Below, piece by piece: positions 9,498-50,571 of a stretch of DNA of 64,000 nt. Position numbers and translations under genes: made by a program. Location: NCBI GenBank assembly GCA_963708295.1, contig CAVPSJ010000008.1, positions 1 through 64,000 of the forward strand. The letters run 5' to 3'. The DNA is from an uncultured delta proteobacterium. GTDB taxonomy: Bacteria > Desulfobacterota > BSN033 > UBA1163. The notes below the pieces were generated by a model, which saw only the letters and a list, made by a program, of their open reading frames with translations, had not been told where the DNA came from and did not search any database. Every line of letters starts with the position of its first letter. Positions within the stretch are counted from its first letter, which is position 1.

Positions 9498-9610
9498 CGG
9501 AAGTGAAGGGTAGAACAGAATCGGCATGAAATTGAAATAAACACCCTTAGACTGTTTGATCCTGGGAGTAAGCAGAGGAGTTTAACGGCGGATGTGGATG
9601 CAAGGAGATC

Positions 9611-9680: not shown

Positions 9681-9744
9681 CTCTACCATGCACGCACGAA
9701 TTCATACTTGACAAATAGACGTCCAAATGGTAAATAAGATTCCA

Positions 9745-10896: not shown

Positions 10897-10941
10897 AGAG
10901 AAAACCTCGAATTGTAGGTCAGGGTCCTGCAATAGAGCAAT

Positions 10942-11213: not shown

Positions 11214-11259
11214 GGGTGGCTGGAGGAACGAGAAATGTGGCTGTTAGGAGGCATATAAA

Positions 11260-11712: not shown

Positions 11713-11817
11713 CGAATGGCAGATTGCAGAAGGCACGGGCAGTAGGCAGAAAGCAGTAAGCAGAAAAAAGGATAGCAAGTGGGAATAGCTCACGGCAAAA
11801 GATGACTGAGGTTGGGA

Positions 11818-11846
11818 GTAGGGAACGGTTTGAAACCGTTCCCTAC
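11818..11846. repeat. GTAG-type REP palindrome
   Basis: GTAGGGAACGGTT-TGA-AACCGTTCCCTAC, a perfect 13-bp stem. Confidence 0.8.
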
Positions 11847-11911
11847 AGAAGTTCGGAGCAATCGGGGAAAAGTCTCGCTACAGGGACTAATGTGACGGTT
11901 TGGAGTTAAGA

Positions 11912-12718: not shown

Positions 12719-12876
12719 TATAAATGAAAATAGGGGCGCATCCCATTTCTTAAGATAATTATTTGGAATACGAGCCAAGATCCTTAATGTCTGCGTTTCC
12801 AAAATATGGTGGTAAAGGTGAATATTAATAAAATAGATTTGACGGCCATCGATATCACAAATTGTTTGCCGAGATA

Positions 12877-12981
12877 AAGTGACGATTCTTGTCGCTTGGT
12901 TACATATATTTTCATTTCAAGCCCTCCTTGGTTTCACGAAACCCTGTAATTTCAAGCTATTGTATTTGGCATCGAAATTGC
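12877..12981 (+). promoter_or_regulatory. Sigma-54 promoter with palindromic activator site and IHF-like site (copy 2)
   Basis: AAGTGACGA-ttc-TTGTCGCTT (12877-12897); TTTCAA-gcta-TTG; TTGGCA-tcgaaa-TTGC (12966-12981). Spacing is 89 bp versus 90 bp in copy 1. Confidence 0.75.
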
Positions 12982-13026
12982 CTTCTATCCCAAGAAAAAA
13001 ATGAGTCCTTTGGAGGAGAATCTATT

Positions 13027-13152
13027 ATGAAACTCATAGACGACGTCGAAGGCTCAGATGGATTGGCTGAAGGAGATAAAGATTTTCTCAAAAGCTTAGA
13101 AAAAATGGCGGAAGAAATAGAAGGCGAAGCTGAGAGTTCTAGTAAGCAGTAG
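13027..13152 (+). CDS. 41-aa acidic small protein (paralog of 3897-4043)
   Basis: MKLIDDVEGSDGLAEGDKDFLKSLEKMAEEIEGEAESSSKQ; GGAGGAG RBS. Confidence 0.75.
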   Translation: MKLIDDVEGSDGLAEGDKDFLKSLEKMAEEIEGEAESSSKQ

Positions 13153-13159
13153 ACAGTCA

Positions 13160-13250
13160 TCAATAACCAGTAATCAGTAATCAGAAGCTAATTAGCAGAA
13201 ATCAGAAAGTAGAAAGCGGAAGGCAGTAAGCAGCAAACCGGCAGTAAAAC
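13160..13250. repeat. Degenerate heptamer (CAGTAAG/CAGAAAG-like) tandem repeats
   Basis: cagtaat cagtaat cagaagc...cagaaag tagaaag...cagtaag; a similar tract lies at about 11720-11770. Confidence 0.55.
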
Positions 13251-13268
13251 CTGACGCGAGAGATTTAG

Positions 13269-13535
13269 ATGAAACGATTTGCCCACCACCTAATCCTTCC
13301 TGTGATCATGCCGGTTCTGTTTCTTATCATCGCTTTGACGCCGGTCGAGGTGCTGGGCTGCTTTGTCCGGGGACTCATCGCGATGCTGATCGCCCTGACC
13401 AGCGGTCTGGCGGCACTCGTCACGGTGATCACTGGATTGAAGGGGAGGGTACGTCATGATCCAAACGCGATTTGGTGGGTGCTAAGCACACTGATCCTGG
13501 CGATACCGGTTATCGCCATGATCATTTTGGCCTAA
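13269..13535 (+). CDS. Small three-TM membrane protein
   Basis: Three hydrophobic helices in 88 aa. Confidence 0.6.
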   Translation: MKRFAHHLILPVIMPVLFLIIALTPVEVLGCFVRGLIAMLIALTSGLAALVTVITGLKGRVRHDPNAIWWVLSTLILAIPVIAMIILA

Positions 13536-13726
13536 AAATAGGGACATATCCCTTTTTGATAGTTGTCCCTCAATGATCCTGCCCATTTATTTATCCACAA
13601 CCTTTGAATCCGGCAAATCTCCACTTTACGATTAGACGCCAACATGTTAAATTAGATTCCCATCTGGCTCGGTTATATGATTCATTTCGGATCGCCTCTT
13701 TCGAGAAAAACGGGGAGGGACTTAGT

Positions 13727-13812
13727 AGGGAATAAAGATTCGACCGAATCGACCCGCGCCGAAGGATGAGTTTTTTTCTTATGCCCGGGAGCGATGCCGT
13801 GGGGTAATTGAC
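13727..13812 (-). mobile_element. Degenerate non-autonomous IS200/IS605-family (PATE-like) remnant
   Basis: Minus strand begins GTCAATTACCCCACGGCATCGCTCCCGGGCAT, resembling GTCAACTACCCC-hairpin ends, followed by ACTCATCC and a second hairpin. Confidence 0.35.
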
Positions 13813-13826
13813 ACCAAGGAGGTGTG

Positions 13827-15440
13827 ATGATGAAAAGAACGGGGACAAAGGACGCGAAGGACTTATCAGGTGTGAGCCGACGGGATGTGTTGAAGATGAT
13901 GGGAGCAGGGGCGCTCTTCGCAATGCTTCCGGGTTACGGTCTGGGAGGAAGTGCTGCGGAGTTTTCTCCTTCCGGGGGGCAGGGGCTGATCTTTTTGGCG
14001 GGGGATGGGATGCCTCTCGGCGTGATCAAAGGGATGCATCAAATCAGAACCAGGCTTTACGGAGACAAAGACACAAATTTCTACTCGAAGATGAAAGACC
14101 CTCGGTCAGCGCTTGGATATTCGTCCACAGATAGCCTCTCCAGTATCGTTACAGACTCCGCGCCCGCCTCCGTGGCGTGGTCAACGGGTTCCAAGACCAA
14201 CAACAAGCTGCTCGCTTCCCTGCCCGACGGCCGCCCCCTCCGGACCATCATGGAACTTCTCAAGGAGCAAGGCTATGCCTGCGGCCTGGTTACCACTACG
14301 AGGGTAACCCATGCAACCCCGGCAGCATGGGTATCGCATCAGGTGAACAGGGATCAAGAGGACGATATTGCTTTGGAATACCTGAAGTTCAAACCGGATA
14401 TCTTGCTGGGGGGCGGAAACAGACAATTTGACTCTTCAAAGAGAAAAGACGGTAAAGACCTTTTTAAAACCTTCTCCGAGACGGGTTACGATGTGGTTAA
14501 AGAAAGGGAAAGTCTCCTTTCAGCGGAGCTCCTTTCTTCCAGGAAGCCCCTCCTGGGCGTTTTCAGCTCCTCACATCTGGACTATTATGTCGACAGAATC
14601 AGTCAACCTGAATTGGCAAAGAAAGAACCGGCGCTGCCAGAGATGACAAGGGTTGCCCTCCAGAAATTATCCGGAAACCCGAAGGGTTTCATTTTATTAG
14701 TGGAAGCGGGGAGGATCGACCATGCCAATCATAACAACGATGCATGGGCGGCCTTTCAGGAAACTTATGAACTGGATCTGACCCTGACGGTGATTGATGA
14801 ATTCCTGAGAATGAATCCAAAAACCGGTGTGATCATCGCCTCCGATCATGGCACTTCATGTTTAGGCATCAACGGGACAGGGCCTGAGTATAATGACTCC
14901 ACAGAGGCGTTGAAGAAATATCAGCCGATAAAGGCTTCTTTAGAGTTTATCAAAAGAAAGATGAAAAGAGATGCCTCTTTGACGGAGATAAAAGATGTTT
15001 TCGAACAGTTTACCACTTATAAAATTTCAGATGAGGAGGCATCCATGATCTCCCGGTCCATGCAGCCGGAATATAGACTTTATCACGGAGATTATATCAT
15101 TCAGCCGGAAGCCACCATGGGAAAAATATTGGCCCATAGCACGTACGAGAAAATTTCGGAGATTTTTTGGGATGGCAAAGCGCTGCTCAGGAGAGGGAAT
15201 GTGGGATTCACCTCCACCCACCACACAGGAGAAGATCAGATCGTGCTTTGCTATGGTCATAAATCAAAAGAGCTCGGTCTGGGCAGATACGTGGATAATA
15301 CCTACCTCTTCACCGCGATGTGTGAGTTCTTCGGCATCCGACATCAGAATCCGACCATGACGGAGGAAGAGGCAAAGCCCTTCATCAAAACTGTGTCCTT
15401 AAGTGACTGGATAAAGCATATGGAATTACATATCGCGTAA
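13827..15440 (+). CDS. Alkaline phosphatase (PhoA family) with Tat signal
   Basis: SRRDVLK; GDGM, VTDSA (catalytic Ser), THATPAA, VEAGRIDHANH, SDH, HTGED. Confidence 0.92.
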   Translation: MMKRTGTKDAKDLSGVSRRDVLKMMGAGALFAMLPGYGLGGSAAEFSPSGGQGLIFLAGDGMPLGVIKGMHQIRTRLYGDKDTNFYSKMKDPRSALGYSSTDSLSSIVTDSAPASVAWSTGSKTNNKLLASLPDGRPLRTIMELLKEQGYACGLVTTTRVTHATPAAWVSHQVNRDQEDDIALEYLKFKPDILLGGGNRQFDSSKRKDGKDLFKTFSETGYDVVKERESLLSAELLSSRKPLLGVFSSSHLDYYVDRISQPELAKKEPALPEMTRVALQKLSGNPKGFILLVEAGRIDHANHNNDAWAAFQETYELDLTLTVIDEFLRMNPKTGVIIASDHGTSCLGINGTGPEYNDSTEALKKYQPIKASLEFIKRKMKRDASLTEIKDVFEQFTTYKISDEEASMISRSMQPEYRLYHGDYIIQPEATMGKILAHSTYEKISEIFWDGKALLRRGNVGFTSTHHTGEDQIVLCYGHKSKELGLGRYVDNTYLFTAMCEFFGIRHQNPTMTEEEAKPFIKTVSLSDWIKHMELHIA

Positions 15441-15461: not shown

Positions 15462-16235
15462 ATGCCATTAAAAGAATGGTTACCCTCGTCGGGTGAAATG
15501 GAAGAAAAGCCTTGGGACCTCTGGGCAACCCTTGGGTTTTCGGCGATCATCTTCGCGCTCTTTTTTGCCCTTCAAATTCTCGTTGCGACTGCCTTCGTTT
15601 CTTTCGCCAAGGCCGACCACCCGGAATTGGACCTCGAGACCTACGCAAAAACCCTTTCCTCCAACGGTTTTTGTATCGCCATCATGATCGTGGTCTCAGG
15701 ACTGATTTGCACTCCTCTGACGCTTTTGTTTGCAAGACTTCGGAAGAATATTTCCATCAAAGATTATATTGGTTTCAGGGAGCCCTCGAAGAAAGAGTGG
15801 GTCCAATGGCTCCTTATTCTGGCGGCTTTTATGTTTCTATCCGACGGCGTGGGTTTTCTCCTCCAGCAACCGATCGTCCCTCCTTTTATGGTCGAGGCTT
15901 TCAAAACGGCTTCCTCCCTTCCTGCTCTTCTTTTTGCGATCGTGGTGGTGGCGCCGATTTTTGAAGAGATCTTCTTCAGGGGGTTCCTCTTCCAGGGGAT
16001 TCGGTACTCTCGATTGGGCCCCATCGGGGCGATTGGAATGACTTCCCTGGTTTGGGCCGCCGTCCATCTTCAGTACGGCATTTACGGTCTCGCGACCGTT
16101 TTTGCTCTTGGCCTCTTGTTTGGAATCGCGCGGCTGAAAACGGATTCAATCCATCTCTCGATGGTCATGCATTCCGTCGTCGGTCTCGTGGCTGTCGTGG
16201 AAACGGCTCTCCACATCGGTGGATTCAGCGGGTGA
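15462..16235 (+). CDS. CPBP/Abi family intramembrane glutamic endopeptidase
   Basis: APIFEEIFFRG, WAAVH, MH motifs; multi-TM. Confidence 0.9.
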   Translation: MPLKEWLPSSGEMEEKPWDLWATLGFSAIIFALFFALQILVATAFVSFAKADHPELDLETYAKTLSSNGFCIAIMIVVSGLICTPLTLLFARLRKNISIKDYIGFREPSKKEWVQWLLILAAFMFLSDGVGFLLQQPIVPPFMVEAFKTASSLPALLFAIVVVAPIFEEIFFRGFLFQGIRYSRLGPIGAIGMTSLVWAAVHLQYGIYGLATVFALGLLFGIARLKTDSIHLSMVMHSVVGLVAVVETALHIGGFSG

Positions 16236-16481
16236 CTCCGCGGGTGAAAGGACGAGCGCGATTGGGCGGGATTACAAGACCTTTGGGCTTCCCGAACCGA
16301 AAGGGATTCAAGACGACAAAGAAATCAGTTCGAGAAAATAAGGGATTTGAAATAAGGCTCTGTGTTGGGTCATTGGCCGGGTCTTAGAATTTGGTATGGA
16401 TCGGTGGGTGGAGCGAAGGCAGGATGAAGGTTCAAAGGCTCGTGGATTCATGCGGGAATAAAAGCGATTAAGAAAATAGGG

Positions 16482-16769
16482 TTGCTCGGTGTCCCCGTGG
16501 TCAAAAAGTATATTAAAAAGCTGTTCATGGTTAACAAGCAGGCCGTCCTGATGGAGGTCCTTTCCATCCAGGGGCTGATGCAGCTTCTCATGAAAATTCG
16601 GAATACGGACGAAAAGTGGACGAGGGAAGAGAGGAAGGAGATCAGGATGCATCTAAGAAACATCGCGAAGATCATTCCAACTGTCACTCTCTTTTCCCTC
16701 CCCGGAGGTTCCTATCTTCTGCCCATTCTCGCAGAAGCCCTCGACCGGAGGAAAACCAGAAGGTTGTGA
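16482..16769 (+). CDS. Conserved hypothetical protein (LETM1 N-terminus-like LPGG..LP motif)
   Basis: WTREER...SLPGGSYLLPILA; the start may be GTG 16497. Confidence 0.55.
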   Translation: MLGVPVVKKYIKKLFMVNKQAVLMEVLSIQGLMQLLMKIRNTDEKWTREERKEIRMHLRNIAKIIPTVTLFSLPGGSYLLPILAEALDRRKTRRL

Positions 16770-16793
16770 AAAAGGAGAAAGGAGAAAAATCAG

Positions 16794-17882
16794 ATGAGAA
16801 AAAATTATTGTTTACCTTTCATCGTAGTGGGGATCCTTGCTTCGATCATGGTGGCGCCGCCCTTCGGAGCGGCGGCAGAAAAGACATGGACCATTCGATT
16901 CCATTATGAACAGCCTCCGACCGCACCTCTTCCCGTATACGGCTTTGAGCCGTGGGCAAAGGATGTGGAGAAGGCAACCAAAGGAAGAGTCAAGGTCCAG
17001 ATCTACTCTGGAGATACGCTCTTTAAGACGAAGTCGGATTGCGTGGAATCCGTCAAATTGGGGATTGCCGACGCGGCCTTTTTGTACGCCTGGGCCTATT
17101 CTCCGCAGTTTGACCTGACCGATGTCCTGGGTGTCCCGTTTATCGTGCCCAACGCAGAGGTGGCAGGCCGGGTGACATGGGCACTGCTGCAGAAGTTTCC
17201 CGAGATGCAGGCGCAGTGGAAGGATGTGAAGCTCCTGACCGTCTGGACGACAGACCCCTACGTCTTTATCACGACCAAAAAGCAGATCAAGGTTCTGGAA
17301 GATTTTAAAGGGATGAAGATGCGAGTGACAGGCGGGATGGCCACCGATATGATGAAGCTTTTGGGCGGCGTTCCTGTCATGTTTCCGATGCCGGAGAGCT
17401 ATCTCAGCCTGGACAAAGGGGTGATCGACGGCATGGCGGCGCCCGGGGAAGCCATCACCGGATTTCGACTGTATGAGATTGCAAAATATTACACGATGGT
17501 GCCTACCACCTGTGTTTCGCAGCAGTTGATCATGAATAAGAAGACCTGGGAGTCCTTCCCTCCGGATATTCAACAAGCCATTATGAGCGTGAGTGGGGAA
17601 AGCGGGGCGATCCGGTTCGGCGGCGGATGCTTTGACAGGGCGTGGGGGCTATTGCCTCAAAAGGCGAAAAGTGTCGGGAAGGAGATGATTACTTATACGC
17701 CGCCCAAGGAAGAGATGAATCGGTGGATTGAAAAAGCAGGCAAACCGCTCTGGGAGGCATGGATCAAAAAGATGGAATCGACGGGGTATTCCAATGCCCG
17801 AAAGATTCAGGAAGAAGCAATCCGCCTCGTGAAGGAGTATAGCGCAGAAAAGACGGATCAATGGCGGAGCATGTTTCCGTAG
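16794..17882 (+). CDS. dctP: TRAP transporter substrate-binding protein (DctP family)
   Basis: Signal peptide; ATKGRVKV, DFKGMKMR, LDKGVIDG, MNKKTWESFPPD. Confidence 0.9.
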   Translation: MRKNYCLPFIVVGILASIMVAPPFGAAAEKTWTIRFHYEQPPTAPLPVYGFEPWAKDVEKATKGRVKVQIYSGDTLFKTKSDCVESVKLGIADAAFLYAWAYSPQFDLTDVLGVPFIVPNAEVAGRVTWALLQKFPEMQAQWKDVKLLTVWTTDPYVFITTKKQIKVLEDFKGMKMRVTGGMATDMMKLLGGVPVMFPMPESYLSLDKGVIDGMAAPGEAITGFRLYEIAKYYTMVPTTCVSQQLIMNKKTWESFPPDIQQAIMSVSGESGAIRFGGGCFDRAWGLLPQKAKSVGKEMITYTPPKEEMNRWIEKAGKPLWEAWIKKMESTGYSNARKIQEEAIRLVKEYSAEKTDQWRSMFP

Positions 17883-18064
17883 AAACACCTCGTGAAAATC
17901 CTGAGTACGATCCTTGAAAGAACTGTTCTCATCTTCTATAAACCCCGATTAAACAAAAAAGCAGAATAAGGGGATAGAGAAGGTGTAAGGGACGTTAGGC
18001 ACTTTCACCCGCATCGGGATGACTGGGAGGTAACGGACAAGAAGCGATCGAGAGTTGCCTCGAC

Positions 18065-19036
18065 TCACGGTTTGCGCAGGCCTATTCTGACGGCAATCTC
18101 GTACATCTGTTTGTATTCGTCGTCTCTAAGCTTCCTGAGCTCCGCTGGATCCTTATATTCACAAATACTTCCCAGGTCGTCAATTTTAGGTTTTGTGGTC
18201 TTGATTGCTTTTTCAACGGCAGGGATCAAAACCATCCTCGCCTCTTCCGGAATTCCTGCGGGGGCCCATAGTGCGAACCAGGTCGCAGGCAGACCTTGTT
18301 TGTAGCCTAATTCTTTAAGCGTCGGGATTTCAGGGTAAGTAGGTTTCTTAGGATCGATCAAAAGAATCCTCATCTTTCCCGCCTCGACATGGGGTTTGAG
18401 CTTTCCGAAACCATCGAGCGTGGCCTCCACATGGCCCCCTAAGACGGCGGTGATCACCGTTTCTCCTCCTTTGAAAGGCACATGGGTCAGCTTGATGTCC
18501 GTAATCGATTGAAGCAACTCGATAGCGAAGTGGGTCGAAGAGCCGACGCCGATTGAGGTGATGCGAATCTTCCCTGGATTCTTCTTTGCATAATCGACGA
18601 AGTCGCGAAAAGTTTTCCAAGGTGCATCTGCTTTGACTCCGATGACCGTCGGAAAGAAGTAATGGAACCCCAGGGGCTCCACATCCTTGGCCGCGTCGTA
18701 GTGAACGACATCCGGATTAGTAATCGGGGCATAGACAAAGGGTGAAGCTCCGCCGTAGAAAAGTGTATACCCATCCTTCTTTGCCCGAATCGCTGTTTCG
18801 GCCCCCAAAACTGTTCCTGCTCCGGGCTTGTTGTTGGGGATGATCTTCTGGCCGATGATCTTCTCCAGCTCATCGGCTAACATTCTCGCCGTGATATCTC
18901 CGGTGGCACCCGCGACGTAGGGGATAATGAGCTGGATGGGACGGTCGGGGTAACCTGCAGAAGATGGAGCAGGCGCGAGCATGTTCAGTCCCAACAGGGT
19001 GGAAATGGCAAAAGCGAATAGATATCTTGATTTCAT
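18065..19036 (-). CDS. Tripartite tricarboxylate transporter binding protein (Bug/TctC)
   Basis: YPDRPIQLIIPY, NKPGAG, DGYTL, HVPFKGG, LGGHV. Confidence 0.9.
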   Translation of the reverse strand: MKSRYLFAFAISTLLGLNMLAPAPSSAGYPDRPIQLIIPYVAGATGDITARMLADELEKIIGQKIIPNNKPGAGTVLGAETAIRAKKDGYTLFYGGASPFVYAPITNPDVVHYDAAKDVEPLGFHYFFPTVIGVKADAPWKTFRDFVDYAKKNPGKIRITSIGVGSSTHFAIELLQSITDIKLTHVPFKGGETVITAVLGGHVEATLDGFGKLKPHVEAGKMRILLIDPKKPTYPEIPTLKELGYKQGLPATWFALWAPAGIPEEARMVLIPAVEKAIKTTKPKIDDLGSICEYKDPAELRKLRDDEYKQMYEIAVRIGLRKP

Positions 19037-19140
19037 GATTCGTTACCTCCCTCGTCATAGAGTTAACAATTCATCCGAGCCCTGACGGAGACGGGCAAAC
19101 CCACTCCGGCCGTGAGTCCGGTCCACAAACATGGCGTCGT

Positions 19141-20340
19141 TCAAATCGAGAAGATCTCCTGGGGGGTCCTGTGGAGACACTCGCTGACGCCGGATTCTGT
19201 AATAAGATAGTTGTCACACACCCAAACCCAAAGGCGCTCGGAGCCGATGATCGGATGGATGGTGATATTCATCCGGGGCTGAAGTTTCATGGGCTCATCG
19301 TCACGAATGGCGGGGCGCTCCACCAAGTCGTATCCCTGGCCGTGAGCGTAGAGACGCGTTTCAGGGGGGAACCCTTTCTTGACCAGGAATTCATTGTTGG
19401 CTCTCCAGATCTCTCCAGGATCTGCCCCCGGTCTCATGAGTTTCAACGTCACTTTTTGCGTCTCTTTGCATAACTCATTGGCATCGTACAATTCGGAAGG
19501 GACTTTCCCGAGAAAATAAGTCCTTCCAAGCTCAGCATACATCCCTCCCGGGCCGTTGACTTCGACCATCAGGGTGAACTGATCCCCCTCCCTAACCATA
19601 CGGTTCTGAAAATGCCGCTTCTGCATCGGGACCGGTTTTCCCAGAGGTCCGGACCCGCCGATGACCAATTGTTCCTCGCTGCCTAGCTCGGTCACTTTGT
19701 GTACGATATCTGCCACGATCTCGAAGTCCCTTCTTCCGGGGCGAATGGCCTTTTTCGCGTACTCCATCGCTTCATCCTGAAGGGCGGTCGTTTTCTTGAT
19801 CAGGGCGATCTCCTCGTCACTCTTGACAGCCTTGATCCGATCGACCAGGTCTGTCGCGTCCATGAACGTCGCTCCGGTAAGGTTCTTCAGAATCGACTCA
19901 TAAAACACGGCGGACATGAACCCTTTTCCGACGAGTCCGATTTTTCCCTTCTTCTTCGCCTTCAGTGTCTCCACAGCCAGGTCTGCATCATACGTATTGC
20001 TATACATGAGACTTCGAAAATAGGGGGCCGTGAGTCTTCTTTTGACGCCTCTCATCGTCCAGGCAGGAGGCCCTAAGTCTCCCGGGGGCTTGCCGCCGCA
20101 GGTAATCGTGGTCATTTCGTCATCGATGGGGAAGATCACGGTCATGGGATAGCCGTTTCGTGCGGGAATATCCGTAAACCACTTCACGTACCCGCCCAAC
20201 CACTCGTTGTCATTTTGCATCAGCAGAAAATCGATGCCTTCTTCCTTCATCTTCGTTCGCACATCTCTCCAACGCCTTTCCAGCTCCGATGTGGATATGG
20301 CTTGGGTGAGACTCTGTTTAGGATCATCCGTCATTTTCAT
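19141..20340 (-). CDS. M24 family (Xaa-Pro/creatinase-like) peptidase
   Basis: KAVKSDEEI, HGQGYDLVERP, IHP; ATG 20340 with AAGGAAGG RBS. Confidence 0.85.
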   Translation of the reverse strand: MKMTDDPKQSLTQAISTSELERRWRDVRTKMKEEGIDFLLMQNDNEWLGGYVKWFTDIPARNGYPMTVIFPIDDEMTTITCGGKPPGDLGPPAWTMRGVKRRLTAPYFRSLMYSNTYDADLAVETLKAKKKGKIGLVGKGFMSAVFYESILKNLTGATFMDATDLVDRIKAVKSDEEIALIKKTTALQDEAMEYAKKAIRPGRRDFEIVADIVHKVTELGSEEQLVIGGSGPLGKPVPMQKRHFQNRMVREGDQFTLMVEVNGPGGMYAELGRTYFLGKVPSELYDANELCKETQKVTLKLMRPGADPGEIWRANNEFLVKKGFPPETRLYAHGQGYDLVERPAIRDDEPMKLQPRMNITIHPIIGSERLWVWVCDNYLITESGVSECLHRTPQEIFSI

Positions 20341-40297: not shown

Positions 40298-41513
40298 TTA
40301 TTGTGACACAATCTCGGTGGAGAGAGGGGTAGGGTGAGGAGCGCAAAAGCCTGCGATTTCACCTGCAATCATCATTTCCATGGCTTTGTCGAATCGGACG
40401 ATCATCTCTTTTCTCCATTCTTCGTCGATGGAAACAGCTTCGGGAAGCCACCTGTTCACAATAACCGCAACGGTCGCAATCCGTGTGAAGGCAATCTGTT
40501 TTCTTGAAATGGTCGAGAAACCCGTTGAATTTTGAGTTGTCGATGTAGACCTTTCCGGGAAAAGGCTCCTTGAGGACTTCCATCGCTTCTCCCATCATCT
40601 CGGGCTCGATGAGGTCGGTTCGTTGAAGGACCTCCAGATTGGGTGATAGGAAGGCTCCTTGCTGGGGGAGCGACAGGAGTTCCACCAGGTTTCCTTTATA
40701 GCTTTTTCGCTCATAGGCATTGACAATCTGAACCAAGCTTTCTGTTCCTCTGAACCTCTCGATGAGCTTCAAACAGTCTATTCCTAAGGCCTCGTAATCG
40801 GACACATCCTCAGGCCGTATCCAGCGGGACTTGATCAATTCGGCGGGCCGAAACAGCTTCAGACGCTGGCAGGCGAGCTTACAATAGTCCGGTGCGAAAC
40901 CCCCGCATGGATGACCCTCCTGGGAGCCATGAGAGACCATGTTCCGGTGGTGGAGGTCGAGAGGACATTGAAAGAGGCAGCAGTGATTGGCGATCAGTTC
41001 AAGCTCGCAATCGACGGCCTCCCGGATGGAGCGCAGGGTCCGAAAATCACGGCCGATGGATTCAGGAAGGATGATCTTATCCGCCCCCAGATCTTCCCAG
41101 TAATGTGCCAGATGAACGTTCTGGACACGGGCAAAAGAGGAGACGCAGACCCTGAGGTTCGGAAATTCCCTCTTCACCATCTGAAGAAGGAAGGGAAGGG
41201 TGAGGGTCACCATGCCGGCCCCGGTCGAAGAGATCCACTCTAAATGCTCCCTGATCTTCTTATATCCTTTTTTGGTGAACTCCAGGTTGTCAAGACAGGT
41301 CGAGTTGATGAGGTAGTTGAAATCGAGACCTCTCTTTCGAGCCTCGGCGATAAAGGAGGCCACTTCTTTCTTTCCCACTTTGGGAATGAAGAGGGCCATC
41401 CTTCCTCCTCCCAGGGGGTCGTTCCACATCTGTCCGTAGAGGCTTCGAACGGAGGTTCCTTCGAGCCTCTCCAGTAAACCGAAATCCCAATTGGTGGCTA
41501 TGGAATAATGCAT
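40298..41513 (-). CDS. U32 family Fe-S protein (frameshift near the 3' end)
   Basis: GGGR, FNYLINSTC, SSFA, ELIANHCCLFQCP...YCKLAC, WIRPED, KLIER, C-terminal CxxxCxxCxxC; corrected frame ends at TAA 40298. Confidence 0.85.
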
Positions 41514-41637
41514 CGCTGACTCTCCTTTTGAGCCTAGAGTAAACGTGCCTTCGTTGATACCAAGTGTGAAACTCCAATCACCAGATCTCTAGTTCCAAAC
41601 AATATCAAGTGACGAAGTTAATACAAACGCATTAAGT

Positions 41638-41700
41638 GAGATGCTGAAACGAGTTCATGACAAGAAAAAGTATGTCATTCCGAACTTGTTTCGGAATCTC
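41638..41700. repeat. Inverted pair of REP-like palindromes
   Basis: GAGATGCTGAAACGAGTTCATGAC and GTCATTCCGAACTTGTTTCGGAATCTC, between luxC and the U32 gene. Confidence 0.7.
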
Positions 41701-41786
41701 GAATTTAAGCATGACGGTGAATTAGCCGGGTTTGCCTTGAAATCATCCAAACGTATTGGGTTCTTAGAATTCTTATCATCGCTTGG

Positions 41787-43273
41787 TTACGGGTGTTTGG
41801 GGCTGGGTGCTTTATCACTCATCCCTTCTATCCCATCTTTCTTCTCCACATCGCACCAGCGAAGCAGAGAGGACAGAGGGGAAATTCCGTCATGATGCCA
41901 CATCATGGAGGGGACGGGCATCTTTCCAGGAGAAGTGATTCGAGCTAACCCCAGCTCCCCCAATCTTCCGATAAAGTCCCTTTCACGCTCATCCCCAATG
42001 GCCACGGCTGCATTCTGCAAGTAAGGAGCGATCGACTTCAGGGAAGGCAGTATCTGGAAAATATCTTCCACCCCATAGATCCGGATGAAACGATTCAAAG
42101 GGGAGGGAGAGAACGTTCCCGGATCCTTTTCATAAACGATTGTCCAATCCGTTCCGTGAGGCGAGGCTAACAGAAGAACCTCCTCGTTATTTAACTCCCT
42201 GAACTCATACTTGGTCTCTAAGCTGATGGATGGCTGAAGCCTCCCCGGGAGAAATCTTTCCCGCGGGGCATCTTTAGATTCAAACCTTCCATGGCTTCCG
42301 CCAGGGTCCGGCAAAATTCCTGTGGAGAGACCTCCCCCCCTGCTTCCAGCATAATAGATATGGGGAGCGAGGCATGCCTGCTGGTCGAACATCGAGCAAT
42401 CGTATGCAACAGAGGCTGCCAGTTCCTCTAATCCATGGCGACTCAATCTCTTCCGGCCGATGATTCCAAATCCCAGCTTATGACCGTGAAGAAGAGCCCT
42501 TCACCTGCCTCGGGGGATCTTCTTCCTGAGGGATTCACAGGCCTCGACCCCGCCAAACATGATGACGGCATCGGCTTGATGAAAGGCTGCCTCTTCAATC
42601 TCTTCTTCTCCCCCTCGCCAGTAAAGGACGGCCATGGATTTCAGCCATCTCCGGATCGATCTCTTCGATCGTCTTGAGATAGAGCGGAGCAAAGGTCGGT
42701 TCTCCTGCGGCCACTTTTCCCAGACAGGCGGCCTTCAGAAGGAGAGCCCTCATGAAGAGGAGATGGGGCAGGGCAGGAATATTTTCGGAGAAAATGGAGA
42801 GGATGAGCTTCGGGCCAAAGGCCCGGCTGTAACCCTGCCAGCTCCGGGGAGTATTGAAAATCGTCGAGAAAGAGAGGATTCTTGATCTCGGAGCAGAGGG
42901 CGCGCCAGATATCTTCCCGCAGGGAACTCTCCATCTCCACATCGATACTGGCCTCCACCACCTCACGAGAGAAATGGGTGATCGCAGGAATGGTCTTGAG
43001 CGCGAGTTTCCGAAGAGGATAATCTCTTTCAAGCCATCTCCGGGATGCCTGATCAAGGACATCGATGATTTTCCCGATAGGAAGGCCGGCAAGGTATGTC
43101 TCTCTGCTCTTCTTCAGGTGATCGGCCAAGGTCTCCACGAAAGATCTGCTGATCTGAGGGATTTTGAGATGAATCGTAATGTCTCCATCCTGATAAGCCT
43201 CGGTTCTGAAGGCCTTCACCTGACCTCTAAAATCCGGAGGAAGGTAGTATGCATCCACTTCGATGATTTCCAT
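41787..43273 (-). CDS. luxC: LuxC-like acyl-CoA/acyl-protein reductase (frameshifted)
   Basis: IFSENIP, ADAVIMFGG, GHKLGF, FDQQACLAPH (catalytic Cys), LQNAAV, HDG. Confidence 0.85.
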
Positions 43274-43356
43274 CAACACTCCTTTTGATATATTCGAGGG
43301 TGGAGAGTAGAGGTGAAAAGGAGTTAAGACCCCATTCACCATTCCACGTTCTACGT

Positions 43357-44480
43357 TCAAGTCCTTATCTGGGTCATCTCATCGATCGTCAAAGAACAGC
43401 CTCTCGCGTCTCCGTCTCTGGTTCTGCCGTCAATCTCAAATCCTTCTGGAGTGATTCTTCCCAGGTCATCGGACTGAATGGCCAGAAGATGCCCCCGGTT
43501 CGCCAGGTCAAAGTGTCGGAGCAAACCCGTCTGACCCGGGGGAAGCGGCTCCAGGGTATCCGGGTCCACCACCAGGGTTCTTGTCCACGGAGGATTGATC
43601 TTGGCCCTCGGGAGATTTGTTCCCCTTGAGGGCGTTCCTCAGAGTATTGTCATAAAATTGAGAGCTGATCTCGGTCATTCCAAGAAGATTGACACAATAG
43701 TCCTTTGCGACTCCAAGGAAATCCTCACAATCGCTGACAAATTCTTCCCGTTTCACTTCCCTGCTTTTTCCTTTAAATCCTCCGGCATCGAGTGTTCTCG
43801 AACCCGGAGGGAGTTTGAAGCGTAACCCTTTCTCACGACAGTAATCGAAGAAATTGACAAAGCCGAAAGAGCCGCCGCAGATCGTTATGGGAATACCCTC
43901 TGCTTCAGAACGGCGTAACTCATCGACAAGCACTCTGGATATCGAAGCCTTCCTTGCCGATGAGAAAGCGGCTTTGGGATGATCCAAAGTATTCCTATCA
44001 ATCGATTCATCCCATAGGCCATGACCATCGTGGGAGACGATCTCCGGAGAGGGGGCGATGATCAGGAGGGTTGTCTTGATCTTGTCCGGGAAGAGGAAGG
44101 AAGAGGCCGCTTCATAAATGGTGGCATCCATGAGCCTGAGGCCTCCTTCGTCGTAATGGACCTTTCCCCTTTCCTCCGGTCTCGTCGTCCCGCTTGTCAT
44201 AAAGGTCCGTACCGTGCTGGAGGGAAACATGGCGAGTTCCATCACTTTGAAGGCATCCGTGGGCAGGGCGGGAATCTGATCCCAGGAAGAGATCTTCTCC
44301 GGGGTTACTCCGCGCTTTTCACAGTAGCGCCTGTAAATCGGAATATATTTGACCTGGAGTTCAAAGATCCGAAGGGCAAGGCGATTGAACTCTTCTGAGT
44401 CCTGATGATCCGTCCCCCTGTCGGATATAGGACAGGATCTTTTCGTCGAGATCCAATATCTCTTTGGGTAACTCCATCAT
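43357..44480 (-). CDS. luxE: LuxE-like acyl-protein synthetase (frameshifted)
   Basis: IPALPTDAFK, FMTSGTT, AGGFKG, GMTEISSQ, DLAN, QSDDLG, GRT..ARGCS. Confidence 0.85.
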
Positions 44481-44514
44481 TCCCTCTCTCCATAAGCAAA
44501 ATGATCGCTCGTAA

Positions 44515-45770
44515 TTAATCGAAACAGAAACTTCCAATACAAGACGGGACACCACTTAACATCCCATCGATATGGAAGGTGATCATCTTCTTCTCGACTA
44601 AGTGGATGAGCACCCTTTTCAAATCTTCCAACGGGAGTTTTTTCTTCTCAGCGATCTCCTGAATGGACAGATTCCCATGAAGCTTTTCTGCCAACCCTGA
44701 CCGGCCTTTCCCCAAGGCAGCTTTCATCTCTTTGTCAGAGACCAAGGACTTCGGAAGAAGCCTTTCATCGAGGGGAGGGAGTTCTTGAAAGTGAGATGGA
44801 ATGAGAAAATCGGTCGGCCGATAGGCGAAGAGGGACGGGAGGAATTCCAAACTTCTTCTGGTAGACATAGCGATAAGCGCTCAACCCTCCTGCTATTCCC
44901 TGGGCCACGGCCCGGGAGAAGGAGTTGTAGCCTCCGGAGGTCACATCTCCGACAGCGAATACCCCAGGAATGGAAGTCTGCATATCCTGATCCACTTTGA
45001 TGAAAGGAGAATTGAAATCCTCAGCCCCTATCTCAAATCGCCAGGCGGGCGAGAGTTCATAGGAGTTGAAATCAAGGAGGACCTTCGGACAATGGATCTT
45101 ACGAGAGCCTTTGGATGTTCGGAGGGTCAGTCCCTGGAGTCTGCCATCCCCCCAGTATCTTTCCACCCAGCCTCGAAGGATGTCCTCCGTATCCTCTCCT
45201 TCTCCCTCCATGATGAATAAGAGAGGAGATTTACCTGCGTTTAGATCTCTGATCAAGGGAATCAGGTTTTGCAACTTCTCGCTTCCCACAATGACCAGCC
45301 TTGGTTCCCATCTTCTGCTGAGAAGTTTTTTGAGGTGAGAGATGATAAATTCATATCCCATACTGGTCACTTCAAGGCCCCGTCCCAGGTAGTCCCTCTC
45401 ATTGACCAGAACCTTGATCCCGGTGGCAATGATCACGGCTAATGAACGGAAGACTTTTCCGTCAGAAGTGAAGACCTCTTTGATTTCGCCTTGGAGGTTG
45501 ATCCGGTTGACTCTTCCCTGATGGACTTGTATCTGCAAACTCTCCATATCCCTCAGGAGGCGCCTGGACAATCTCCTTCCCCTGGATCTTCCATGAAGGT
45601 CCTGTGAAGATACATCCCCGCCAGCCTGCTAAACCTCCGAGAAAGGAGTTCTCAATCAGCAGGGTGCTGCAAGGGATGGCCTTGTATCTCTTGACCCATC
45701 GGGCCCGGATGGCCGCGTTGAGCCCGGCCGGCCCTCCTCCCACCACAATCACGTCCCAGTCATATCCCAT
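44515..45770 (-). CDS. TrxB-like FAD-dependent oxidoreductase lacking CxxC, with C-terminal winged-helix-like domain (two frameshifts)
   Basis: VVGGGPAG, IIATG, TSIPGVFAVGD; GRGLEVTSMG where TrxB has GVSxCxxCDG; tail GNLSIQEIA...LIHLVEKKMI. Confidence 0.8.
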
Positions 45771-46288
45771 CCTTCTCTCCCTTCCGTTCCTTCTGAAGAT
45801 AGGGAATCAGTCCCCCCGCCTCCAAGATCTTTTTGATATGGGGGTCCATGGGGGAAAATGGGAAACGTCTGGCATTGGGGAGGTCAATGATTCCCTCGGT
45901 GGTGAGGATATCGATCAATTCTCCGTCTTTGACCCGATTCTGAATTTCTCTGCATTCAAAAGTCGGGACGCCGAGATTGGTTAAGCTCCTGAAGAAGATT
46001 CTGGCAAAGGATGCTGCGACGACTGGCCTTCACGCCGAAATTGCGAAGACCTCTTACCGAAGTCTCCCGGCTGGAGCCGCAGCCGAAATTTCTTCCTGCC
46101 ACGATGACAAGTTTCTCATGGGAGGATTCCGTTTCAAAATTCGCGCCCAGCCTCCCCATCCCTTCAATCAACCCCTCCTTCACTCTCTTCTCATCCAGGC
46201 TGAAGAAGAAAGAAGGGTGGAGGACATCGGTATTGACATGATCCCCTAATTTCCAGACCCGTCCGGAAATCTTTTCGGGAAGTGTCAC
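45760..46288 (-). CDS. Homoaconitase/isopropylmalate isomerase small subunit (HacB/AksE/LeuD-like; frameshifted)
   Basis: GDHVNTD, AGRNFGCGSSRE, SFARIFFR, ILEAGGL. Confidence 0.88.
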
Positions 46289-47541
46289 ACATCACCTCTC
46301 TTGGGTCGATGATCCTTCCTGCCAGGGCAGAAGCAGCGGCTGTCAGGGAGAGGCAAGGTAGATGTCTGGAAGAGGGATCTCCCATCCTCCCCTGGAAGTT
46401 TCTGTTGGAAGTGCTCAGACACCTCTCTCCCTGCTCCGAGAATTCCTTTATCGATGCCCCCGCAGAGACCACAGCTCGGATTCAGAATCACCCCGCCGGC
46501 CTCCACGATGGTCTGAAGATATCCCCTTTCGATCGCCTCCCGGTAGATCTTCTGGGAAGCCGGCGAGATGAGAAGTCTCATCCCCGAAGCGATCTTCTTC
46601 TTCCGGAGGATACGGGCCGTCATTTCAAGGTCCCTGAGCCTTCCGCCTGTGCAGGAACCGATGAAGACTTGCTGGATGCTCTTCCCCTTTGATCTCATCC
46701 AACATCTACGACCCGGGCAGGGCTGTGAGGGAGGGCGACTTTAGGATGAAGCGAGGAAAGGTCTACCTCCATCCTGTTACGGTACAGGGGATTCTCATCA
46801 AAACACTCTCCCCAGTCGTCTGCACTGGCCGTCCCTTTCCTCCAAATAATTCCGGGTCACTTGATCGGGGATGAAGAGCCCGTTTTTTGCTCCTCCTTCC
46901 ACCACCATGTTGCAGACGGCAAACCGGTCGTCCATCGGAGAGGGCTCCGTCATCGTCATAAAACTCGAGGGCCTGATAGAGAAACCCTCCTTCTCCGAAT
47001 CTTCCCAGGAGGTCGAGGATAATGTCCTTCCCCATGAGGTAAGGGGGGAGTTTTCCCTTGAGGTCGATTCGGACTGGCTGACGGGAGGCTTGAGCCATGT
47101 CTTTCCTGTCATCAAGGTATAAAGAATATCGGTTGAACCCATTCCCGTTGCTAAACATCCCAGAGCTCCGGCGGTGGTCGTGTGGGAGTCGGCGCCGAGG
47201 ACTAACATGCCGGGCCTCAGCCAGGGCCCTTCGATCAGGAGCTGGTGGCAGATTCCTTGATAGATGGACTGGTGAGGTAATGCCTCGGCCTTGGCAAAGG
47301 AGATGACCGCTTTTGCGATATTGGCCCGTTCAATCGTGGAGGGAGGGGCAAAATGATCGACCGTGACGAAAACCCTCTCCTTGTTCCAGATCCGACCTCC
47401 CAAATCTTTTAGCTCTGAAAGGAGAAGAGCAAAGGTCGGGTCAGGCAAGAGGACAAAGTCGACATCGACGGCATAGTATTCGCCCTCTCTTCTTCCGTCC
47501 GAATGTTTCTGGATGATTTTATCCGTATATCCTTCAAACAT
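46285..47541 (-). CDS. Homoaconitase/isopropylmalate isomerase large subunit (HacA/AksD/LeuC-like; frameshifted)
   Basis: DHFAP, GICHQ, GADSHTTTAGALG, GSCTGG, PSCGLCGG, STSNRNFQGRMG. Confidence 0.9.
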
Positions 47542-48736
47542 CCTTTTTCAGAACCCCTTTTGCGATATCCCAGAAAGCCTCCAACGGGAAATTGAGAGAG
47601 CCTTCGTAATAGGATTCCATCTCTTTTGCCATCCGATGGATCTCCGCCTTACCCTTTGCCATCTTTCTCTCCTTTACCTTTTGAAGGATCTCCTTCAGCT
47701 CTTCCTCGTTTGCTTCATATCCTCTTTGTCCGAGGAGATGCATGATGGTCTGGGTGCCTGTATGCTTTCCCAGGACGAAAGAGGATTCTCTTCCCACTTC
47801 TTTCGAATCGATGATTTTGTAAGTCTGGCTGTTTTTGAGAATGCCATCCACATGGATCCCCGATTCGTGGCGAAAGGCATTGAGCCCGATGATCGGGGCA
47901 TGAGGAGGGATGAAGATCCCTGAACACTGCTCCACGAGCCGGGAAAGGCTGTAGAGCCCCTGCAGATCGATTCCGTGTTCGCCGGTGGAAGATCTTCTCC
48001 AAAGCCAAGACCACCTCGTGAAGGGGAGGATTCCCTGCCCGCTCGCCGATTCCGTTGACCGTGACCGAGGGATAATTCACTCCGGCTTCTATGGCAGCCA
48101 GGGTGTTGGCTGTGGCCAGGCCGAGGTCATTGTGACAATGGACGCCCAATCTCCATCTCCTGTGGAATTCGGTCTCTCACTTTCTTGACCAGGTCCTTCA
48201 TCCTGAAGGGTTCCATCACGCCCACCGTGTCGCAGATAAAGGCCCGTCGGGCTCCCCGGTGGAAGGCGTAGAGAAAGGATCTCACAGAGAAAAGGAATTT
48301 CGGCCCGCGCCGCGTCCTCTGCCGCCAGGTTGATCAAAAATCCCTTTTGATCGGCATACCGGATCACATCCCCCATCAGTCGCTTCACACCCTCTTCATC
48401 CAATCCCAGCTTTGAGCGCACATGGAGGGGGCTTACCGGACAGATGATAAACACCTCTTTCACGTCACATTCAGACGCCTGGTCCACCTCATCCCTTTTG
48501 AGCCGGATGGACACTCCGATGGACGCCTTGAGCCCCTGGTGGGCAATGGCAGAGATGGCCTCCCTCTCCTCCGAAGATATGGATGGCATTCCCACGTCGA
48601 GAATGGGCACACCGATTCGGTCCAAAGCTCAGAGCAATCTCGAGTTTTCTCCTCCTTGGTGAAGATAGACTCCGGGAGACTGCTCGCCCTCTCTCAGGGT
48701 TCCATCCACAAAATTAATTTTATCTGACGGTTCCAT
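47534..48736 (-). CDS. Homocitrate synthase-like DRE-TIM acyltransferase (NifV/AksA-like; frameshifted)
   Basis: [54 protein letters not shown]; about 400 aa with no LeuA regulatory domain. Confidence 0.88.
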
Positions 48737-48836
48737 AAAAAGGTTTCAGCCCATTCCCCATTTGAGTGACATCGCACCCCGTAAGTATAAGAAAAACCGC
48801 GTTGGAAAGGTTTGGAAGCATGCCCAACTGTCTACT

Positions 48837-50398
48837 TCAATGGCTACCCCTCGAACGCCAGCTCATATAACGACAGAAGAGCCTGCCCCAAAAGGGATCG
48901 CTGGCTTTCCCGGATTAGGATGGAAGGAACAGAAATCCCGACACTTGGCCTCTCGTAAGACCTTCTCAAAATCTTGTGGGTTCAGTTCCTTTCCATTTCC
49001 CATATAGTCAGGGATAGCAGTAGCCCAATCCTCCACCTTCAGGAGAACTTTTTTGATAAAAGTCAGCAAAGGTCTGCTTCGTCGAAACAATTCCGAACTC
49101 CTCCGGATGGAGGTGCCAGGGAGAGGCAGGCTCCAGGGATATCGGAGCAGACCAGATTCTCCCTATATTTTTGAATCTTCTCTTGATTTCTCTTTTCAAG
49201 GCAGAGGTCTTGGATAAATCAGAATATCTTTCCCCTGGGATTCCCATAGCGAAGAAGATATCGGTCCTGATCCCAAACTTTTCTGCTGCGGAGATGGCCT
49301 CCATCAGTTCCTCGTTGGAGTAAGTGAAGGTCTTGTTACGATGCCTCACCCTTTCATCTCCGGACTCAGGAGAGAGGGCGATCATCGAGCCGTCAAGAAT
49401 GAATGTATTTGCCAATTCCCGGAGGAAGCGCTCTGAAGGGAGAGAGAAGGATTCAAAGTAAACTCTTGTGCGAAGCTTCTTTTTTCTCAACAGGGGGAAT
49501 AAATCTAGATAATATTTTTCTCCTTCTTTCCCCGGATCAAAGGCGATGTTGAACATCTCGTAGCCTAATTCGAGCGCTTCGGCCATCGTGTCGGCGACGG
49601 CTTCGGGTGAGCGGAAAACCACCCCCTTTCTCCCGTTGACTCTTTGCTGGGCCTCCGCACCCCCTCCGCACCAGGTGCAGTTTCCAAAACACCCTCTGCC
49701 GATATTGAGAGGAAAGAGAGGAGGGCCAAGATGAAAGTGTCGTCTGTTCTCCTCTTTGGAAAGTCCTTTGGCCCAGACAAAAGGCATTCCGATATAGCGA
49801 ATATAAGTCTCCTTACCCTCAAGCAAAGAGAGATTGATATACGAGGATCGGTCCAAATCCGCTTCAGAAGCCACATAGGAGAGAGGATTTTCTTTGATCT
49901 CCCCATCTTTTCTCCAGGTGAGGTTGGGGATGTTTTCCCAACCCCTTCCTTCTTTCACAGCATTCATCAACGCGATGAGCGGGATTTCAGCGTCGCCACG
50001 GATGATCGCGTCCAACTGAGGAAAAGAGCTCAGAATCTCTCTGTGAAAAAGACTGGCAGTGTACCCACCCGACAAGATGGTGATATCCGGTCTCTTCTCT
50101 TTTATCTCCTTGGCGATCCTCATCACGTCATACGACTGCGGGTGAAAGTGGAGCGGGATGGCCACCACCTTGATCTCCTTATCCTTCAAATAGGCGAGGG
50201 GCGAGGAGATCCTCTTTTCGATCCACTCCAGACCCAGGTGCAGGATTTTGGTCTTGATATCCTTTTTGTGTGGCAAGGTCAGCAAGGGAGAGGGTCCCCA
50301 TCGGAAGGAGATTGACGGTCATATACTCGCCGAAGGGACGGTAGAAATTGTGAGAATTTGGGCACATGAATGAAAAGGAGATCAAGCGATTCGGTCAT
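48837..50398 (-). CDS. Cobalamin-binding radical SAM protein (frameshifted at both ends)
   Basis: N-terminal B12-binding domain (PMGTLSLA, GGYTAS, RGDAE, IPNL); GRGCFGNCTWC; SPESG; GIPGE; ATG 50398. Confidence 0.88.
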
Positions 50399-50571
50399 GT
50401 ATCTTAAGTTGTTTTGCTTTTTTAATGGCGTTATTGATTGGAGGATTTTTAAAAGTTGATAAATTATAACCTATCTTTCTTTCTTAAACTACACTCCCTC
50501 TGTCATTTCGGTAATGAGTGGCTATAGTTCCGTTGGACAGACCCGCCGGAGCGCAGTCCTGAAAATCGAAT

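Follow-up and report, generated by a model that had tools for sequence, protein, structure and literature searches.

An accessory, probably mobile operon that joins a LeuA/LeuCD-type module to LuxE/LuxC-type carboxylate reduction in uncultured bacteria

We analyzed a 64,000-nucleotide stretch of DNA from an uncultured delta proteobacterium (Desulfobacterota; BSN033; UBA1163), comprising positions 1 to 64,000 of contig CAVPSJ010000008.1 in assembly GCA_963708295.1 and referred to here as the window. Between 40.3 and 50.4 kb its minus strand carries eight co-oriented genes that encode, in order of transcription, a radical S-adenosylmethionine (SAM) enzyme with a marginal B12-binding domain, a synthase of the isopropylmalate/homocitrate type, LeuC-like and LeuD-like subunits of an aconitase-family enzyme, a flavoprotein, LuxE, LuxC, and a U32-family protein. 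We consider it likely that these genes constitute an accessory, horizontally mobile biosynthetic operon for a small carboxylate-derived metabolite, a reading carried by the identity of the genes and their catalytic motifs, the conservation of the set across genomes, its independence from housekeeping genes, and its patchy distribution. An earlier, sequence-only reading had assigned the eight genes to these families and judged them to be frameshifted; Pfam scans run on the reading-frame fragments of the window itself recover every family, and open reading frame (ORF) lists together with alignment to relatives indicate that all eight genes are interrupted in this assembly.

The orthologous operon is intact in locus L007, which we used as a clean reference. 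There the radical SAM gene (9848-11452) is followed by the synthase (11759-12955), LeuC-like (12948-14195), and LeuD-like (14192-14710) genes, the flavoprotein gene (probable ATG at 14700, extending to 15953), LuxE (16128-17252), LuxC (17249-18688), and U32 (18685-19884). Starts and stops overlap between synthase and LeuC-like, LeuC-like and LeuD-like, LuxE and LuxC, and LuxC and U32, and the probable flavoprotein ATG overlaps the LeuD-like stop, an arrangement indicative of translational coupling in L007. The run of overlaps from synthase to flavoprotein described earlier for the window is thus real as read in this intact ortholog; in the window itself, the LeuC-like start overlaps the synthase stop.

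Conservation of the set was assessed with two kinds of scan. A scan with the radical SAM protein, taking one genome per species, yielded 18 loci, 13 of which have the synthase adjoining; wherever enough sequence was available, these carry the identical eight genes in identical order, intact in every one. Scans based on a LuxC alignment used the peptide patterns PSMMWHH and (S/E)xNIPALPH and, after de-duplication, gave 80 unique species-level loci, 57 of them informative in having at least 6.5 kb upstream of LuxC. A five-gene core of synthase, LeuC-like, LeuD-like, LuxE, and LuxC is found in 49 of the 57 informative loci, as is the flavoprotein; core and flavoprotein occur together in 42 and are joined by the radical SAM enzyme in 37, U32 is present in 16, and all eight genes in 15. 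The operon genes co-occur far beyond chance. A conserved unit across genomes was what the sequence-only reading had proposed, but that unit is the five-gene core and not the full eight. Gene order varies while the set is kept, with the radical SAM gene last in L065, L066, L130, and L131 and the two halves of the operon swapped in L101. All-against-all ORF clustering of 61 loci identified as recurring families the eight genes, shadow ORFs antisense to them, and some tailoring genes limited to particular lineages; it revealed no other widely shared family and no dehydrogenase, phosphoenolpyruvate (PEP) mutase, or carrier protein. According to record titles, the operon loci include Thermodesulfobacteriota (Syntrophaceae, Syntrophorhabdus, and Desulfobacterales), Myxococcota, Acidobacteriota, Gemmatimonadota, Hydrogenedentota, Wallbacteria, Elusimicrobia, UBP16, and some genomes labelled Pseudomonadota, and every locus with the synthase/dehydratase module derives from a metagenome-assembled genome (MAG).

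This co-occurrence bears on whether the operon is a single system. Were it instead two unrelated neighbors, a LuxCE module for fatty aldehydes or lipids alongside a Leu-like module, one would point to the LuxE-LuxC pairs that stand without the synthase module in L056 (Methylobacter), L041, and L036, and to a second radical SAM protein in L053 and L069 that falls near the "lipid biosynthesis" B12/radical SAM model TIGR04072 (319 bits against a cut-off of 360). We find such an accidental pairing quite improbable, as both modules occur together in 49 of the 57 informative loci, even with rearranged gene order, and the genes appear translationally coupled in L007.

The operon is also independent of the housekeeping leucine and isoleucine genes. 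The genome encodes elsewhere a full-length LeuA (799 bits against a cut-off of 532) that adjoins LeuC (699 against 611) and LeuD, as well as a CimA (803 against 450), and an aconitase stands beside NADP-isocitrate dehydrogenase outside the operon, in agreement with the separate housekeeping enzymes that the sequence-only reading had called for. In a quick tree the operon synthases lie apart from the genome's LeuA, its CimA, and a third paralog, on a weakly supported branch (Shimodaira-Hasegawa-like approximate likelihood ratio test [SH-aLRT] 91) that is drawn as unresolved. The third paralog is a short-form isopropylmalate/homocitrate synthase-like protein of 408 aa encoded on the minus strand of another contig (G000 C14:316303-317529; L078 2303-3529), which scores below all equivalog cut-offs and adjoins a GlcD-like oxidase.

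Among relatives the distribution is patchy. This LuxC type is present in 16 of 68 genomes of the class (7 of 32 when restricted to high-quality genomes) and in 5 of 15 genomes of the genus, the window's own counted. In two genomes of the same genus that carry the operon, the gene flanking it downstream in the window lies on another contig or approximately 0.5 Mb away, and the window's upstream neighbor was found in 1 of the 14 other genus genomes, one that is without the operon. The operon is therefore accessory and has moved. Because it is present in only 16 of 68 class genomes, its distribution also argues against a product that serves as an essential cofactor arm, one of the roles previously suggested.

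The short-form synthase (47534..48736, approximately 398 aa) belongs to the DRE-TIM superfamily, with Pfam matches to HMGL-like (48089-48628) and HCS_D2 (47534-48076), domains that score 242 and 82 bits, and with metal-binding HxH and GERAGN motifs conserved across 38 aligned synthases. It falls below all NCBIfam equivalog cut-offs for the LeuA, CimA, NifV, LysS, and AksA types, the best scores being 415 against 517 (NF002085), 404 against 485 (TIGR02090), and 395 against 463 (NifV). A homolog search returned 6425 proteins at E<=1e-30, and the 120 among the matches listed bear inconsistent automatic names, such as citramalate synthase, NifV, and "homoaconitate hydratase". The nearest sequence in the PDB is homocitrate synthase 6ktq (E 7.6e-74), and an Arg in the motif FRHESG is specific to the operon family. 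The LeuC/HacA-type large subunit (46285..47541, approximately 415 aa; Pfam Aconitase at 46798-47547 and 46285-46740) displays the GSCT and SCGLC cluster motifs in the window translation and passes the NCBIfam subfamily models NF001614 (472 against 385) and TIGR02086 (445 against 410), though no equivalog model. The LeuD/HacB-type small subunit (45760..46288, approximately 172 aa; Pfam Aconitase_C at 45956-46291) passes TIGR02087 (120 against a cut-off of 109) and keeps the GCGSSR motif. Together the two classify as a LeuCD/HacAB-type heterodimeric dehydratase that does not reach the LEU2, HacA, leuD, or HacB equivalogs. In LeuD-type proteins a substrate-recognition loop sets specificity, according to passages of PMC7308503; in the operon protein this loop reads LHP(S/P)xx(F/Y)S-L, as opposed to IIPARYLNQT in the genome's own LeuD.

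These enzymes recall the 2-oxoacid elongation modules LeuA/LeuCD/LeuB, AksA/D/E/F of methanogens, and HphA/CD/B, in which a DRE-TIM acetyl-CoA:2-oxoacid synthase is likewise followed by a two-subunit [4Fe-4S] dehydratase/isomerase and with which the operon shares its metal/HxH, GERAGN, and GSSR motifs. It differs in that its synthase lies below the equivalog cut-offs, its small-subunit loop is distinct, it is an accessory set, present beside the LeuA, CimA, and LeuCD that the genome encodes elsewhere, and no locus contains a beta-decarboxylating dehydrogenase. The absence of a LeuB/AksF-type enzyme from the window had been pointed out before; the genome's four Iso_dh matches all lie on other contigs, and no such family recurs among the loci, which sets the operon outside Leu- or Aks-type elongation pathways. 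As a result, the dehydratase/isomerase is probably the last step that the pathway shares with the elongation cycle, and the chain-extended product proposed in the sequence-only reading is doubtful.

The likeness of the synthase to 6ktq raises a further possibility. In the fungal alpha-aminoadipate pathway (Lys20/Lys4/Lys2), a synthase and an aconitase-family enzyme precede an ATP-dependent step that reduces a carboxylate to an aldehyde. In a variant of this route, homocitrate synthase, homoaconitase, a trans-acting dehydrogenase, and a transaminase would produce 2-aminoadipate, and LuxE/LuxC, whose activity resembles the adenylation and reduction performed by Lys2, would stand in for that enzyme to generate a semialdehyde that leads on to lysine or a pipecolate-like product. 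Many operon synthases share LREGEQ with 6ktq, with the family-specific Arg preceding HESG, and a HisC-type aminotransferase lies directly upstream in five Acidobacteriota-type loci. The reductase belongs to another family, with LuxE/LuxC in place of the nonribosomal peptide synthetase-like Lys2. We judge this route improbable: homoisocitrate dehydrogenase is encoded in no locus, the small-subunit recognition loop contains no Arg and departs from the canonical forms, and the radical SAM enzyme, flavoprotein, and U32 protein would be left without a role. The operon's patchy, accessory character, with presence in 5 of 15 genus genomes, is moreover incompatible with primary lysine synthesis.

Synthase and LeuCD-like enzymes also operate together outside amino acid synthesis in the phosphonate pathways for pantaphos (Hvr) and FR-900098 (Frb), in which phosphonopyruvate is condensed with acetyl-CoA and a LeuCD-like dehydratase and a flavoenzyme follow. 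The combination of synthase, LeuCD-like enzyme, flavoprotein, and methyltransferase resembles HvrC/D/E/B/F, and, in the part of PMC7858074 that sets out the pantaphos proposal, the dehydratase stops at the maleate, a flavoenzyme acts next, and an O-methyltransferase is encoded in the cluster. The family-specific Arg of the operon synthase could bind an anionic group. The operon differs in having a flavoprotein of thioredoxin reductase (TrxR) fold and not the NtaA-type monooxygenase fold, in its additional LuxE/LuxC, radical SAM, and U32 genes, and in having no PEP mutase: TIGR02320 has no match in the 91% complete genome, which extends the absence previously noted for the window and leaves phosphonate biosynthesis without its defining gene there, and the loci share no other conserved family of this sort. 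With PEP mutase not found, a phosphonate origin is improbable, and we attach very little credence to a pathway of the pantaphos/FR-900098 type.

Downstream of this module, LuxE and LuxC retain the features of an acyl-relay pair. LuxE (43363..44477, approximately 374 aa; Pfam PF04443 at 43508-44476) scores 83.5 bits against a cut-off of 24.9 and matches LuxE of PDB entry 7xc6_E (E 2.5e-18). Its C-terminal RGCSLT contains a Cys invariant in 42 of 42 sequences and matches the motif TRxxKGCxLS of Photobacterium phosphoreum LuxE, within which the acyl-carrying Cys364 is placed in passages of the LuxC-LuxE cryo-electron microscopy paper (PMC9157457). LuxC (41787..43273, approximately 480 aa; Pfam PF05893 at 42641-43378 and 41787-42500) scores 274 bits in intact L007 and 98 and 31 bits on the window fragments. 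All sequences compared (10 of 10 and 22 of 22) keep its Cys in DQxACLxP and the downstream WHHDG, which correspond to Cys296 and His442/Asp443 of P. phosphoreum LuxC as given in the same passages (PMC9157457). The pair shares with that of luminous bacteria its two relay cysteines, the C-terminal motif of LuxE, and a layout of adjacent, overlapping genes; in contrast to that system, LuxE and LuxC fall far below the equivalogs for long-chain-fatty-acid--protein ligase (NF052244, 71.3 bits against 550) and LuxC (NF052251, 87 against 750), and neither LuxD nor a luciferase context was found, although no search was aimed at luxAB/D. An ESM Atlas look-up with LuxC returned generic "acyl-CoA reductase" clusters alone. 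We would expect the substrate to be a hydroxy-di- or tricarboxylate and not myristate.

Several loci vary around this gene pair. In L065 (8495-9931) and L066, members of one uncultured lineage, LuxE and LuxC are separated by an inserted gene whose product joins an adenylate/guanylate-cyclase domain to an RDD membrane domain, and a gap of similar size separates the two genes in L124, L127, L128, and L130. In the high-GC loci L071, L072, L074, and L067, the LuxC open frame extends over 800-1200 codons and spans the LuxE region, which could represent either a LuxE-LuxC fusion or a stop-poor upstream frame. A tRNA lies immediately 3' of LuxC in L053.

The remaining three enzymes would act in tailoring. 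The first gene of the operon (48840..50400 as mapped with L002, approximately 520 aa when intact) has Radical_SAM and B12-binding Pfam matches at 49008-50318, the former scoring 55 bits, and a CX3CX2C motif that can be read in the window translation and is shared by all 17 orthologs compared. Its nearest NCBIfam model, TIGR04190, spans residues 41-462 at 223 bits, well below the cut-off of 500, and the PDB contains no sequence relative. The flavoprotein (44515..45770, approximately 417 aa including a C-terminal helical domain of approximately 100 aa; Pyr_redox_2 at 44765-45628 and 45462-45806) gave an AlphaFold2 model with a predicted local distance difference test (pLDDT) score of 88.8, the top Foldseek matches of which are FFTR, TrxR, and TrxR-type FNR. 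Although the fold is TrxR-like, the protein is not a thioredoxin reductase: no Cys column is invariant (the best reaches 28 of 32), there is consequently no CxxC pair, and the second, NADPH-binding dinucleotide motif is degenerate relative to GxGxxA/G. A complex prediction for the radical SAM enzyme with the flavoprotein, run without controls, gave no answer, scoring 0.00 against a mark of 0.32.

The U32-family Fe-S protein (40328..41513, approximately 400 aa; Peptidase_U32 at 40359-41513) ends the operon and carries frameshifts in the window, one of them near its 3' end. Cys79, Cys175, Cys185, and Cys189 and a C-terminal CX4CX2CX2C do not vary among the 18 sequences compared. Like UbiU/UbiV, TrhP, and RlhA, it combines a U32 domain with four invariant Cys, here in a UbiV-like layout (CXnCX9CX3C), and the tandem U32 genes of Desulfobacterales-type loci recall the UbiU-UbiV heterodimer. 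It is nonetheless very distant from these proteins, matching the TrhP model only faintly (24.8 bits against a cut-off of 534), and differs in its extra C-terminal four-Cys motif, in the absence of UbiT, and in a Cys spacing unlike the hydroxylase motifs CXnCX12CX3C and CX6CX15CX3/4C that appear in portions of PMC6747719 and PMC10990095.

In the spacer between LuxC and U32, the window contains a short repeat element (41618..41706, neither strand assigned) that lies outside the pathway, contains internal inverted repeats, and has four further partial copies in the genome at 82-92% identity, on contigs C4, C12, C15, and C20. Metagenome contigs show a local depth spike and many loose ends at this position, which suggests a repetitive extragenic palindrome (REP)-like or small mobile element. 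No riboswitch or RNA leader was detected in the window by Rfam at the gathering threshold, and in five related loci the only matches were an unrelated tRNA and, in L053 alone, a c-di-GMP-I riboswitch aptamer (13601-13690, minus strand, 85 bits) approximately 2 kb downstream of the operon variant. Promoter and terminator predictions between 39.9 and 51.0 kb did not exceed the counts in shuffled sequence. Elsewhere in the window, long-ORF coverage is low within positions 1-10000 (0.39 and 0.20 in the two 5-kb bins), and GC content reaches 0.58-0.62 at 56-58 kb and 60-62 kb.

The interruption of every operon gene in the window calls for an account of its own. Alignment with L001 shows the window to carry surplus bases at 37 places and to be short of bases at 10, mostly single bases outside homopolymers; relative to L002, the corresponding numbers across 40.3-50.5 kb are 47 and 14. 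Six of the eight genes are split over two to four frames in comparison with relatives, and the synthase and LeuD-like genes align unsplit, yet at just 70% and 41% identity. If these frameshifts were real, the operon would be a decaying pseudogene cluster in this organism. Compatible with decay, all eight genes are interrupted while the 13 flanking syntenic ORFs with a match (31.7-40.0 and 51.6-58.1 kb) each remain in one frame, 12 of them at 77-98% identity and the last, matched only over a short part, at 71% (a further two small ORFs of the relatives gave no match); indel density is 4-8 per kb in the operon versus approximately 0-3 per kb in alignable flanking genes; and the operon is dispensable in relatives. 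Approximately 45 frameshifts in a pseudogene would, however, predict an excess of non-synonymous changes, and the window-specific codon changes are 171 synonymous versus 58 non-synonymous, a constraint at least equal to that of the intact L001 lineage (195 versus 99). Gene decay in bacteria is biased toward deletions, unlike the changes observed here, which are for the most part one-base insertions outside homopolymers and include no large deletion. Real decay accordingly appears to us a slim prospect. Because the codon changes are mainly synonymous and the flanking ORFs intact, the frameshifts are most likely local consensus errors, and the organism itself most likely carries an intact operon. 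In the 15 other class genomes that have it, LuxC is never interrupted, and public short-read metagenome contigs covering the stretch, from relatives at approximately 90-95% identity, are without the window's extra bases. The insertion-type errors end exactly at the operon borders (40.3-50.5 kb), with the adjoining genes clean; a strain-variable, low-coverage, or cross-mapped region is our guess as to the cause.

The tailoring genes differ among lineages. U32 is confined to Thermodesulfobacteriota-type loci, occurring as a tandem duplicate in those of Desulfobacterales type, two of which continue into a Liv-type ABC importer. Acidobacteriota and Kofleriaceae form a clade in the quick synthase tree (SH-aLRT 100), and its loci are mostly without the radical SAM enzyme, flavoprotein, and U32, with L043 and L051 retaining the flavoprotein. 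This variant includes the HisC-type aminotransferase noted above (5 loci), a CmlS/QhpG-like FAD enzyme (3 loci), an FAD_binding_3 monooxygenase (2 loci), a Methyltransf_2 O-methyltransferase (3 loci), a P450 (2 loci), and an SBP_bac_8-fold protein (10 loci) that never occurs together with the flavoprotein and for which no signal peptide was found in the eight sequences inspected. The O2-independent route put forward in the sequence-only reading thus fits the Thermodesulfobacteriota-type version but not the Acidobacteriota/Kofleriaceae version, with its O2-type tailoring enzymes.

These variants invite a more specific proposal, possible in our view if doubtful, in which a seven-gene module makes an unrecognized small molecule, whether a cofactor, a signal, or a redox-active compound, perhaps starting from an aromatic 2-oxoacid, and exists in two versions. 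The O2-independent version would employ the radical SAM enzyme, the flavoprotein, and, in some lineages, U32; the O2-dependent version would employ the FAD monooxygenase/halogenase-like enzymes, P450, O-methyltransferase, and the cytoplasmic SBP-fold protein. Such an arrangement would parallel the dual ubiquinone pathways, and the compound would have been overlooked because all carriers found so far are uncultured. The aerobic set of phenol-type hydroxylase/halogenase, O-methyltransferase, and HisC-type transaminase hints at an aromatic 2-oxoacid, which we treat as a lead.

For the accessory operon as we read it, the enzyme families suggest the following course. The DRE-TIM synthase would form a 2-substituted malate by condensing acetyl-CoA with a 2-oxoacid; the LeuCD-type [4Fe-4S] enzyme would dehydrate this product to a substituted maleate and might rehydrate the latter to a 3-substituted malate. 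The pantaphos proposal (PMC7858074) offers a precedent for a halt at the maleate, with a flavoenzyme acting next. With no beta-decarboxylating dehydrogenase to follow, LuxE would adenylate one carboxylate and load it as a thioester on its C-terminal Cys, and LuxC would accept the acyl group on its own Cys and reduce it with NAD(P)H to an aldehyde. The cobalamin/radical SAM enzyme may methylate or rearrange an unactivated carbon, the CxxC-less TrxR-fold flavoprotein may catalyze a redox step or possibly supply electrons, and, in the Thermodesulfobacteriota version alone, the U32 Fe-S protein may carry out an O2-independent hydroxylation.

A number of points weigh against this reading. Its substrate, its product, and the sequence in which its enzymes act are inferred, and the 2-oxoacid used by the synthase is not readable from its sequence motifs. 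The B12-binding match barely clears its cut-off in the window (32.3 against 32.1) and scores 26.1 in L007, the flavoprotein's redox or electron-supply function is a candidate role, and a housekeeping LeuB could act in trans. The association among genes was measured within the LuxC subfamily defined by the two peptide patterns, and the set is incomplete in 8 of the 57 informative loci, among them L036 and L074, with flavoprotein-LuxE-LuxC alone, and the Methylobacter isolate L056, the only locus not from a MAG, with LuxE-LuxC alone. As for the frameshifts, consensus error does not by itself account for their confinement to the operon, the metagenome contigs do not come from the same strain and so do not settle the question directly, the best-matching sequencing run contains 0.17 of the sampled words of the stretch, and no RNA run was listed among those that match it.

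On balance, the interpretation in the sequence-only reading is partly supported. Among the findings that would have told against it, namely failure of the genes to co-occur elsewhere, a synthase and aconitase that are the genome's only leucine or lysine enzymes, or a match to a characterized pathway, none emerged as far as could be tested. Its view that no described pathway has this combination agrees with our full-text literature search, which found no paper describing it; MIBiG and MetaCyc lay outside that search.

If our reading is correct, the operon, which spans at least seven phylum-level groups, would represent a compact and well-delimited pathway assembled from known enzyme families in a combination new to the literature searched. 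It would put the LeuA/LeuCD module to a new use, halting ahead of the dehydrogenase, and would give a LuxE/LuxC carboxylate reductase a role that is neither lipid-related nor luminescent. Its anaerobic and aerobic tailoring sets would form a natural pair that could assign substrates to orphan members of the U32 and B12/radical SAM families, and intact orthologs such as that of L007 are suited to synthesis and heterologous expression.

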